Below, piece after piece: positions 5,319 to 6,858 of a stretch of DNA of 8,594 nucleotides. The translations under genes were made by a program, and so were the position numbers. The stretch spans positions 1 to 8,594 of IMG/VR virus record IMGVR_UViG_2690316210_000003. One strand, 5' to 3'. Each line of letters opens with the position of its first letter. Position 1 is the first letter of the stretch. Below the pieces are notes generated by a model that was given only the letters and a program-made list of their open reading frames with translations, was not told the DNA's origin and did not search any database. Source of the stretch: a virus. Lineage: Duplodnaviria > Heunggongvirae > Uroviricota > Caudoviricetes.

Positions 5319-5609
5319 ATGTTCAAATTATCAGAATCACAATTATCAAGAATGTTTAAGAGTGCTCCTGTATTTGTGGTGGAAGGTGGTAAATCAATTC
5401 GTGCTTACCATGAAATTACTACTACCGACGAACAAGGGGTAATTACAGAATCAGAATTTCTATTTTGTCGTGAGGGAGACTTAAATCAGGGTGATGTTGT
5501 CATTGTAGACGGTGAACGCTTCAAAGTTCAATACGTTAAGCGCAATGGTGATAATACTTCTGATTGCTTTATTGCTCGTGCAGGGGGTACACATGCTCGC
5601 TACCGTTAA
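5319..5609 (+). CDS. Small virion protein (96 aa), possible head-tail adaptor/head-closure protein
   Basis: Strong RBS; the C-terminal GDVVIVDGERFKVQYV segment resembles the end of head-tail joining proteins as I recall them. Position is immediately downstream of the capsid gene. Function tentative. Confidence 0.75.
   Translation: MFKLSESQLSRMFKSAPVFVVEGGKSIRAYHEITTTDEQGVITESEFLFCREGDLNQGDVVIVDGERFKVQYVKRNGDNTSDCFIARAGGTHARYR
5582..5592 (+). promoter_or_regulatory. Ribosome-binding site embedded in the 3' coding end of the 96-aa gene (AGGGGGTACAC)
   Basis: GGGGGTA + 3 nt + ATG 5593, same geometry as the RBSs at 1059, 5319 and 6025. Confidence 0.6.
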
Positions 5610-6015
5610 TAATATGCCGAGACTGAAAATCAAACGCGCCTTGCAAGATATTATCGAACAAGATTTAGGTCTGGCTTTAAACGTAGAACAAACTCAGCAA
5701 GGCTTTAGTGATGACGTGGTTTGTTGGATTACTGGCATGAATGAAACTTATACGCGTGTTCGTGGTGGTAATGCAATGCAAGCTGAATGCGTTATCGAAA
5801 TGCAGTTGTATTCTCAGAATCATGAAACAAAAATCCATGAGGGTATTTGCCAGATAATCCAGATTCAGCCGGATAACCCACGATTTAAAGATTTGGGCTT
5901 CTCTATTTCAGATATCACTCCAGTAGCTTCTAATACCGATTATGACGATGATTCTAGTGATGGGGGTATCGTTGGGACACTTAGCCTTAAATTTTCTTAT
6001 CTAGCGCGTTTTTAA
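5593..6015 (+). CDS. Hypothetical structural protein (141 aa from ATG 5593), possible connector/tail-completion protein
   Basis: Same frame as the listed 5512..6015 ORF, but 5512 is a GTG with no RBS inside the upstream gene; ATG 5593 has the conserved RBS. Overlaps the upstream gene by 17 nt. ATG 5614 is an alternative start without a recognisable RBS. Confidence 0.7.
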   Translation: MLATVNNMPRLKIKRALQDIIEQDLGLALNVEQTQQGFSDDVVCWITGMNETYTRVRGGNAMQAECVIEMQLYSQNHETKIHEGICQIIQIQPDNPRFKDLGFSISDITPVASNTDYDDDSSDGGIVGTLSLKFSYLARF

Positions 6016-6024
6016 GGGGTAATA
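6012..6024 (+). promoter_or_regulatory. Ribosome-binding site overlapping upstream stop (TTAAGGGGTAATA)
   Basis: TAA stop 6013-6015 forms the start of TAAGGGG; ATG 6025 lies 5 nt after GGGG. Confidence 0.7.
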
Positions 6025-6858
6025 ATGAATATTACGCATGATAACTTAGATATTTTTACGGGGTCGCATGTTGAAGTGTCGATCTCTAACCAGCTAGACA
6101 ATCAGGTCGACTTTTTCGATCCTAGCTTTAGTGGTGTATCGAACATCGCAGCGTTTCCTACGCTAACAGAATCAACCGAGATCGAGACTTACGAAGAGTA
6201 TGATCATGATGCAACGGGTAAGCTGGCAGGTTATCGTAGACTGGAACCAACTACGCTGGTAGTAAACCGTGTTCTTGACGATGAACATCAAGCAATGTTG
6301 ATGAAAGCGGTAGAGGATAAAACACCTTTACGCTTCCGTATGTTCTATGTTGTGAACTCTGGCTATAGTGCTGCTAACACTGGTTACTATGTCATCTATG
6401 ATGCTTATGTCACTAGCCATAAAACCCGTGGTAGTGATAACAAAGCTGTAACACTGGAATTTAAACTTGAACCAGATGGCGGGATTCTAGCAAGGGGTAT
6501 TGCAACCGAAGGTAAGATCTTGCGTCAGGGTGATTTTGGTTTGGGTGCTGGTGTAAATCCTTTCAGCGGTCCTATTGATAGTGAATCTCTGACAGGAAAC
6601 CGCTTCGTAACCTACAAAGGAACGGCTAGCACTAACCCTTATGGTGCTGATACATCGTTAATTCATCTTCAATCTAATGAGCATGGCGCATGGCAATTAA
6701 CGTGTAATACTTCCGGTGCTCCACGTTTGCGGGTACGAAATATCCAGGAAAATGGGAAGTCGGAATGGATTAAAGTCTATTCTACAAACGAGAAGCCTAC
6801 ACCAGCCGAAATTAATGCTGTTGCTAAGACTGATAGAATCGACTTCGGGGAATACTGA
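6025..6858 (+). CDS. Virion structural protein (277 aa), possibly a major tail/tube protein
   Basis: Strong RBS, translationally coupled to the upstream gene, followed by a terminator. Tube-protein assignment rests only on position and a loose by-eye resemblance to lambda gpV-like proteins; low functional confidence. Confidence 0.7.
   Translation: MNITHDNLDIFTGSHVEVSISNQLDNQVDFFDPSFSGVSNIAAFPTLTESTEIETYEEYDHDATGKLAGYRRLEPTTLVVNRVLDDEHQAMLMKAVEDKTPLRFRMFYVVNSGYSAANTGYYVIYDAYVTSHKTRGSDNKAVTLEFKLEPDGGILARGIATEGKILRQGDFGLGAGVNPFSGPIDSESLTGNRFVTYKGTASTNPYGADTSLIHLQSNEHGAWQLTCNTSGAPRLRVRNIQENGKSEWIKVYSTNEKPTPAEINAVAKTDRIDFGEY

Follow-up and report, generated by a model that had tools for sequence, protein, structure and literature searches.

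Genes and features of the locus

The DNA analyzed here (the window, 8,594 nucleotides (nt) in total) is the whole of positions 1 to 8,594 of IMG/VR virus record IMGVR_UViG_2690316210_000003, assigned to the Caudoviricetes, and corresponds to the late-gene region of a lambda-like siphoviral prophage with a G+C content of ~42%. The subject of this analysis is positions 5,319 to 6,858, where three tightly packed genes encoding proteins of 96, 140 and 277 amino acids (aa) are bounded by two hairpins and followed by a fiber gene, and above all the 277-aa protein and its relation to the tail tube and to that fiber. This layout had been picked out in an earlier reading of the letters (the original prediction) and was confirmed with two small corrections: the second protein has 140 and not 141 aa, and the fiber gene starts at 6932 and not 6933. 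Homologs are conserved for all four genes, which are therefore real genes and not chance open reading frames (ORFs). The statements on function made below derive from sequence, predicted folds and synteny. The features of the window are:

66-986, gpA-type large terminase, C-terminal nuclease part
1059-1553, 164-aa protein, candidate for head-tail joining, upstream of the portal gene and with a weak match to a 'head-tail joining' PHROG
1564-3075, lambda-family portal
3121-5124, 667-aa fusion of prohead protease and major capsid protein
5262-5283, plus strand, G+C-rich terminator-like hairpin after the protease-capsid fusion gene, AGCCCTGCC-TAAC-GGTGGGGCT then TTTTT (-17.2 kcal/mol, z -3.2)
5319-5609, plus strand, gene of the 96-aa putative stopper, lambda gpFII-like (Pfam Phage_attach, PHROG 161)
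5593-6015, plus strand, gene of the 140-aa putative tail terminator with a lambda gpU / T5 p142 fold, read from an ATG and overlapping the 96-aa gene by 17 nt
6025-6858, plus strand, gene of the 277-aa protein, beginning 9 nt past the stop of the 140-aa gene
6025-6507, plus strand, residues 1-161 of the 277-aa protein, predicted tail-tube domain (AlphaFold2 (AF2) model, Foldseek, PHROG 158, paralogy)
6508-6798, plus strand, residues 162-258 of the 277-aa protein, conserved junction or fiber module (conservation)
6799-6858, plus strand, residues 259-277 of the 277-aa protein, gp36-type C-terminal end …KPTPAEINAVAKTDRIDFGEY-COOH, proposed fiber docking site
6885-6904, plus strand, hairpin after the 277-aa gene with a poor T-run (-21.3 kcal/mol, z -5.1)
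6932-7084, plus strand, fiber residues 1-51, T4/RB49 gp37-type N-terminus
7085-8594, plus strand, remainder of the fiber, partial: a repetitive N/T-rich rod, then a gp37-like body, open at the window end

A compact but complete neck module

The 96-aa protein matched the Pfam family Phage_attach (PF05354, lambda gpFII) at E 2.1e-5 with 25.5 bits against a cut-off of 26. Nine of the ten members of its family matched the same model at E<=0.01 (best 7.8e-6), a precomputed PF05354 match is on record for one relative (P0239), and PHROG 161 ('head closure Hc1') was matched at E 0.0017. Judged by these sequence matches, the protein is a predicted lambda gpFII-like head-tail attachment (stopper) protein. 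The 140-aa protein itself had no sequence-family match, and single members of its family alignment gave weak matches to three tail-terminator PHROGs. Its AF2 model, built from a shallow 7-sequence alignment (mean predicted local distance difference test score, pLDDT, 78.8), was compared by Foldseek with the PDB and resembled the neck proteins of NF5 (6e-6) and SaPI1/80alpha (6e-5) and lambda gpU (3fzb, 1.4e-4), as well as T5 p142 and the T1 and R4C terminators (8bcp, 9l0e and 8gtf among the PDB entries). Fold, size (within the 125-160 aa range) and the position of the gene between the stopper and tube genes all agree with a tail terminator, and the protein is assigned to this role on the basis of its modeled gpU fold.

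Because the 140-aa protein has a terminator fold and the 96-aa protein is gpFII-like, the neck would be complete without the 277-aa protein. Together with the 164-aa head-tail joining candidate, the stopper and terminator form a normal minimal neck set, and the block is compact but not anomalous; the view that the neck module is abnormally small did not hold. The family profiles of the 96-aa, 140-aa and 277-aa proteins found nothing significant among PDB sequences, where fold comparison alone worked.

Two tail-tube folds per genome

The AF2 model of the 277-aa protein has a pLDDT of 70-94 over most of residues 13-161, which adopt a tail-tube fold composed of a beta-sandwich, a flanking helix and a long loop. 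Foldseek aligned this domain with lambda gpV (5e-8, probability 1.0) and also with the tube proteins of 80alpha, monocin and NF5; its matches in BFVD included many viral major tail proteins, and the protein matched PHROG 158 ('major tail protein') at E 1.4e-8. Three elements that mediate ring stacking in tube proteins (PMC10038345) are kept: the helix, the long loop at residues 55-68 and the N-terminal arm. No Pfam match was found for the 277-aa protein, no Pfam or NCBIfam model covers this proposed anchor, and its RefSeq label is hypothetical; it is nevertheless conserved, its homologs ranging between 93% and ~41% identity and sharing 57 invariant positions. Three other assignments were rejected: tail terminator, a role filled by the 140-aa protein; decoration protein, given the tube fold; and distal tail protein (Dit), of which a separate 186-aa copy is encoded downstream in a close relative.

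That relative, L001, is a prophage of E. coli STEC1575 (NZ_CP116044, 1.969-2.006 Mb) that is inserted in ycdX, carries a serine recombinase and has an intact TerL of 634 aa; prophages ~90% identical to the window occur in 22 complete E. coli genomes. Downstream of its 1203-aa fiber, L001 encodes a tail tube protein of 158 aa, a gp38-like adhesin of the T2 type, a chaperone for tail assembly, a T-like protein, a tape measure of 839 aa, Dit, a pair of small tip proteins and a gpJ-like tip of 1258 aa. The phage thus has a full lambda-like tail, with the fiber gene inserted upstream of the tail genes. The suspicion that the tail genes are arranged non-canonically was therefore well founded, as the tube, chaperones, tape measure, Dit and gpJ-like tip all follow the fiber in these ~90%-identical prophages. 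The 158-aa protein matched PHROG 158 at E 4.7e-22, with sub-threshold matches to Phage_TTP_11 and Phage_TTP_12, and it shares 30% identity (E 2e-12) and an N-terminal DIFTG arm with the tube domain of the 277-aa protein. Each genome has two tube-fold genes, which flank the fiber gene. According to the original prediction, a canonical tube homolog at the 277-aa position, with the tape measure simply located after the fiber, would speak against its reading; the tube fold and the downstream tail genes are indeed present, but so is a second, canonical tube gene.

The gp38-like adhesin gene of L001 (31135-31641; Pfam Gp38_N E 1.9e-15, PHROG 1121) lies between the tube and chaperone genes. Its presence is odd, in that the fiber of the same prophage ends in an S74 self-cleaving chaperone domain.

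Distribution and fused variants

A profile search for the 277-aa family over 1.84 billion representative proteins returned 280 matches. Some 17 close clusters (342-1209 aa) retain both the tube domain and the D-x-G-x-aromatic end. In more than 100 others (600-1563 aa), the same N-terminal arrangement of tube domain and junction module precedes an entire fiber, many of these proteins ending in an S74 intramolecular-chaperone domain or another receptor-binding C-terminus. Around 50 loci were collected from E. coli, Serratia proteamaculans, Yersinia pekkanenii, metagenomes and IMG/VR, and a scan of genome contigs with a narrow peptide pattern gave two loci. The gene order was the same in nearly all loci reaching far enough: terminase, a protein of ~160 aa, portal, protease-capsid, a protein of ~95 aa and a terminator of ~135-165 aa, then the tube-domain fiber protein, a ~151-aa tube protein, chaperone, T-like protein, tape measure and Dit. 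The tube-domain fiber protein ranges from 415 to 1349 aa across these loci, sometimes with extra fiber genes, and in most cases it consists of the tube domain joined to a complete fiber (600-1349 aa). In several of the IMG/VR loci L015-L020 it ends after 415 aa and shares a 37-nt overlap with the following ORF, which is read in a different frame; this overlap could represent a sequencing frameshift, a pseudogene or a programmed frameshift in the fiber gene.

These loci bear directly on whether the 277-aa protein could itself be the major tube protein, with a C-terminal decoration like that of lambda gpV and with the 158-aa paralog as the minor one. Such a role would agree with its tube fold and PHROG 158 match, and with its gene standing after the terminator gene, the usual place of a major tube gene, and being followed by a stable hairpin. 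Even so, we give this explanation little credence. Its ortholog in most relatives is 600-1349 aa long and includes an entire fiber, and because a 1000-aa fiber on every tube subunit is implausible, the 277-aa protein would not be the major subunit. Directly upstream of the chaperone and tape-measure genes stands not the 277-aa gene, which is followed by the fiber, but a different 150-165-aa paralog in nearly all of the ~50 related loci (in L001 the gp38-like gene lies between). It is also this smaller paralog that scores much better against tube families. In L001, moreover, a copy of the strong hairpin that follows the capsid gene is present downstream of the 158-aa tube gene but absent downstream of the 277-aa gene, so that the small paralog bears the strong terminator of the capsid gene. 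The downstream tube protein of another relative (L004) has a weak C-terminal Ig-like match (Ig_3 E 5e-4, below the Pfam cut-off); lambda gpV and T5 pb6 carry C-terminal decorations of the Ig-like type. The canonical pre-chaperone position, the capsid-type terminator in L001 and the weak Ig-like match in L004 indicate that the small paralog is the major tube protein and the 277-aa protein a low-copy specialist. The latter is thus very unlikely to be the major tube protein and appears instead to be a paralog with a fiber-connector tail. Of the earlier suggestion that it is not a tail tube but, for example, a decoration or neck protein, the decoration part fails on the confident tube fold, the exclusion of a major tube role stands as very likely, and a neck fiber remains among the possibilities considered below.

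The gp36-type end and the gp37-type fiber

The motif GDFGxGAG…NRF…WQL…LRVR…W.KVY in residues 162-258 is conserved in the close family, and the same junction module is found in the more than 100 distant clusters, where it joins the tube domain to long fibers. Residues 207-277, the C-terminal 71 of the 277-aa protein, gave an end-to-end alignment with RB49 gp36 residues 426-496 (34% identity, E 2e-5), and both proteins stop in a shared motif, …KPTPAEINAVAKTDRIDFGEY (IDFGEY) in the 277-aa protein and …KPTPADVGAVPLNAVIDFGTF (IDFGTF) in RB49 gp36. Comparable termini occur in T4 gp36 (DFGYY), in L004 (IDLGTF) and in L002 (IDFGLE), and D273 and G275 are invariant in the 277-aa family. The Pfam model Phage_T4_gp36 was found above its cut-off in a single family member, the 1209-aa P0083 (28.8 bits versus 26); no such domain reached the gathering score in the 277-aa protein itself.

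The fiber gene downstream, which begins at 6932 and runs past the window end, starts with MQSIQFKRT…GEIAI…YTKD, a gp37 N-terminus with 39% identity to RB49 gp37 (E 3e-10), and its residues 3-47 match PHROG 1699 ('long tail fiber distal subunit'). The gp36 trimer of T4 binds gp37 in the N-terminal region of the latter (PMC3004832), and the 277-aa gene has the place expected of a gp36-type connector, directly upstream of a gp37-type fiber N-terminus. The two ends also occur together: an anchor terminus of the form D[FL]G-x-[FYE] is followed by a gene for a fiber starting with x-F-K/R-R in three of three loci (L001 was checked by eye), versus none of the 42 loci without this ending.

Further along the fiber, residues 290-542 are 89% identical to residues 71-323 of RB49 gp37, and positions 7799-8556 of the window share 85% DNA identity with gene 37 of RB49, a virulent T4-like phage, and with that of related phages. 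This similarity indicates that a fiber segment has recently been exchanged between a temperate siphoviral prophage and lytic myoviruses. The full-length fiber homolog of L001 (1203 aa) has Gp34_trimer and Peptidase_S74 domains. In the repetitive rod region, Tandem Repeats Finder detected no DNA tandem repeat. A 207-aa minus-strand ORF at 7066-7689 was rejected as a gene and is a shadow of the N/T/A-rich rod encoded on the plus strand.

The visible mosaicism of the fiber, with its DNA-level identity to RB49 gene 37, and the truncation of terL by an insertion sequence (IS) element in this prophage copy might suggest that the 277-aa and fiber genes are a recent mosaic insertion or a decaying remnant, in which a duplicated tube gene became fused to a fiber fragment, the product having no assembled function. 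Against this stand the range of conservation and the invariant positions of the 277-aa protein; its reading frame and that of the fiber are intact, and the architecture and gene position are kept in ~50 loci and more than 100 protein clusters; we regard decay as barely plausible.

A tube paralog as a possible fiber anchor

Taken together, we favor as probable the interpretation that the 277-aa protein is a specialized tube paralog that forms a dedicated tail-tube ring and anchors the adjacent T4-like fiber through its gp36-type end. Positions 5319-6858 would then encode three low-copy ring proteins, the stopper, the terminator and the tube paralog, with the tube proper built from the separate ~158-aa protein encoded after the fiber. 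The tube domain of the 277-aa protein would assemble as one or a few rings in line with the tube and its C-terminal part would lie on the ring exterior, ending in the T4 gp36-type connector onto which the gp37-type N-terminus of the downstream fiber would dock. In this way a T-even-like distal half-fiber would be mounted on a non-contractile tail. Six chains feeding trimeric fibers would give two fibers per ring, and the translational coupling of the 277-aa gene to the six-copy stopper and terminator genes would fit a six-copy ring. The proposed anchor and the fiber form one polypeptide in most relatives and would be split here at the gp36/gp37 joint, a split that would let fiber bodies be swapped with T-even phages; the 85% DNA identity to RB49 gene 37 shows that such exchange has happened.

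The position of this ring along the tail may be envisaged in more than one way. A location just under the terminator, as gene order suggests, has roughly an even chance and would give neck-mounted fibers, as the original prediction suspected. A location just above Dit, as in T5 and Ur-lambda, is by analogy only a little less probable; this tube/Dit junction is favored by the T5/lambda precedent and by the logic of assembly from the tip. Any other position has a slim chance.

The closest precedent is that of T5, in which a single ring of p140, a protein derived from the tube protein pb6 by duplication and divergence, lies between the tube and Dit (Linares et al. 2023, PMC10038345) and carries the p132 collar that holds the pb1 side fibers (PMC10038345). 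Both systems would use a tube paralog distinct from the major tube protein as a dedicated in-line ring, and as a platform for dispensable side fibers; here also there are two tube-fold genes per locus, with the fiber gene beside one of them. In T5, however, the p140 ring is undecorated, a separate 12-mer Ig-like p132 collar holds three pb1 fibers, and the p140 gene lies among the baseplate genes, whereas here the tube domain itself covalently carries the fiber or connector and its gene lies between the terminator and tube genes. No p132-type collar protein was found among the L001 tail-module genes scanned against Pfam and PHROGs. The relation to T5 p140 is one of analogy only and not of membership, with no sequence similarity claimed.

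The proposed joint resembles that between gp36 and gp37 of T4 (Leiman et al. 2010, PMC3004832) in the gp36-like C-terminal 71 residues with their terminal IDFG-x-F/Y, in the gp37-type N-terminus and body of the fiber, and in the order of connector then fiber genes. It differs in that the gp35-binding N-terminal part of gp36 is replaced here by a tail-tube domain, with no gp34 or gp35 equivalents, and in that the gpA terminase, lambda-family portal and gpJ-like tip mark the host particle as a lambda-like siphovirus, whereas T4 is a myovirus. Ur-lambda likewise combines a lambdoid tail and a gpJ-like central fiber with T4 gp37-related side fibers (PMC12617516), but the N-terminus of its Stf forms a 12-mer external collar around the gpV/gpM junction (PMC12617516), whereas the anchor here would have a tube fold and be encoded ahead of the tube gene. 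Lambda gpV, SPP1 gp17.1* and T5 pb6 also have a tube domain followed by an externally displayed C-terminal domain; theirs is an Ig/FN3 decoration on the major tube subunit or on a frameshift product, whereas here a separate paralog bears a fiber or connector extension.

These comparisons also inform another possibility, in which the 277-aa protein belongs to the neck or a collar and its tube-like domain lies outside the channel, for example in an external collar, with the fiber as a whisker that has no role in adsorption. The coupling of its gene to the stopper and terminator genes would be consistent with this, neck fibers such as T4 fibritin are known elsewhere (PMC3004832), and the known siphophage fiber anchors are external collars. 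Those of T5 and lambda, however, use Ig-like or beta-sheet domains and not tube domains, whereas the domain here is a close paralog (30% identity) of the lineage's own tube protein that retains the arm, loop (residues 55-68) and helix used in ring stacking (PMC10038345), and the fiber body is of the receptor-binding gp37 type. A collar component is therefore an unlikely explanation.

Several points weigh against the in-line ring anchor that we favor. Folds, paralogy, end-to-end gp36/gp37 similarities, conserved synteny and fused variants are observed, and it is from these that we infer ring formation, stoichiometry or copy number, fiber docking and position in the tail; this applies also to the geometry of a hexameric ring feeding trimeric fibers, two per ring. 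The known siphophage side-fiber anchors are 12-mer external collars (PMC10038345, PMC12617516). The C-terminal half of the AF2 model of the 277-aa protein is unreliable (pLDDT 30-50), and a BLASTP comparison of this protein with T4 gp36 was not significant, so that the link to gp36 rests on the similarity to RB49 gp36, on the terminal motif and on the one Pfam match of a relative. It was in relatives, beyond the end of this window, that the downstream tail genes were observed. Finally, the prophage copy examined here is probably defective, because an IS insertion truncates its large-terminase gene, and it may not make particles.

Implications for siphophage fibers

Structures that explain the fastening of accessory fibers on flexible tails are available only for T5-like phages and Ur-lambda, both of which use external collars, and the authors of the T5 study noted that anchoring must differ in other siphophages (PMC10038345). 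A tube-domain anchor would be a simpler, in-line solution and, if true, a third mode of mounting, with representatives in over 100 protein clusters and on ~50 contigs of prophages or viruses. We give about even odds to the broader proposal of a widespread, undescribed class of siphophage fibers in which a tail-tube domain serves as the N-terminal anchor in an in-line ring, with six chains passing into two trimeric fibers, and in which the E. coli branch, split at the gp36/gp37 joint, would act as a plug-in socket for fiber exchange between temperate siphoviruses and virulent T-even phages. The split form provides a defined joint between a gp36-type end and a gp37-type start, which would explain the DNA-level fiber exchange with RB49-like lytic phages and could serve to retarget the host range of a phage or tailocin.

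Compared with T5 and Ur-lambda, the architecture here unites tube domain and fiber or connector in one chain, with no separate collar. The full-text open-access literature yielded T5 p140 as a precedent for tube paralogs and no description of tube-domain fibers, an absence that is no proof of novelty. No curated family or isolated phage represents the tube-domain anchor. For annotation, this implies that such 'hypothetical proteins' are tail components and that the two tube-fold genes of a module should not be merged.

When the 277-aa protein and one distant member of its family were compared by tblastn with 50,697 phage records, the sole match was PQ671644 ('DCP80'). This record (PQ671644.1, 'Escherichia phage DCP80', positions 1-21560 of which form locus L002) is 141 kb long and classed as T4-like Straboviridae. 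It opens with a siphovirus module that is syntenic to the window, with terminase, portal, protease-capsid, terminator, a 698-aa tube-domain fiber protein, a fiber, a tube protein and a tape measure. The assembly is thus probably chimeric, its first ~20 kb resembling a siphovirus module that was assembled together with the rest.

Hairpins and other features of the window

Across the whole window, 7 terminator-like sites were found versus 7.7 expected from shuffled sequence. Because this frequency does not exceed the shuffled level, the two hairpins that bound the three genes are supported by stem length and intergenic position and not by enrichment. A near-identical sequence to the 5262-5283 hairpin is found at L001 25157, 31091 and 32370, its recurrences including sites downstream of the 158-aa tube gene and of the T-like chaperone gene, and the 6885-6904 hairpin is kept at L001 26783. 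The recurring hairpin, AGCCCTGCC-loop-GGTGGGGCT with a T-run, looks like a reused terminator or attenuator cassette that marks highly expressed late genes.

Positions 1-57 of the window are the end of a multicopy IS element that matches 3325 E. coli records and whose transposase is annotated as 'integrase core domain-containing protein'. Related prophages align with the window only from position 58, corresponding to TerL codon ~326; by this alignment, the element replaces the first ~325 codons of terL in this copy.

The 194-nt gap after the capsid gene (5125-5318) contains a second stable hairpin, CTTCCCCCGATTTGGGGGAAG, at 5147-5167 (-15.9 kcal/mol, z -3.4). By eye, the same gap also holds a possible Lys/Glu-rich ORF of ~30 codons, with a TTG start inside this hairpin.

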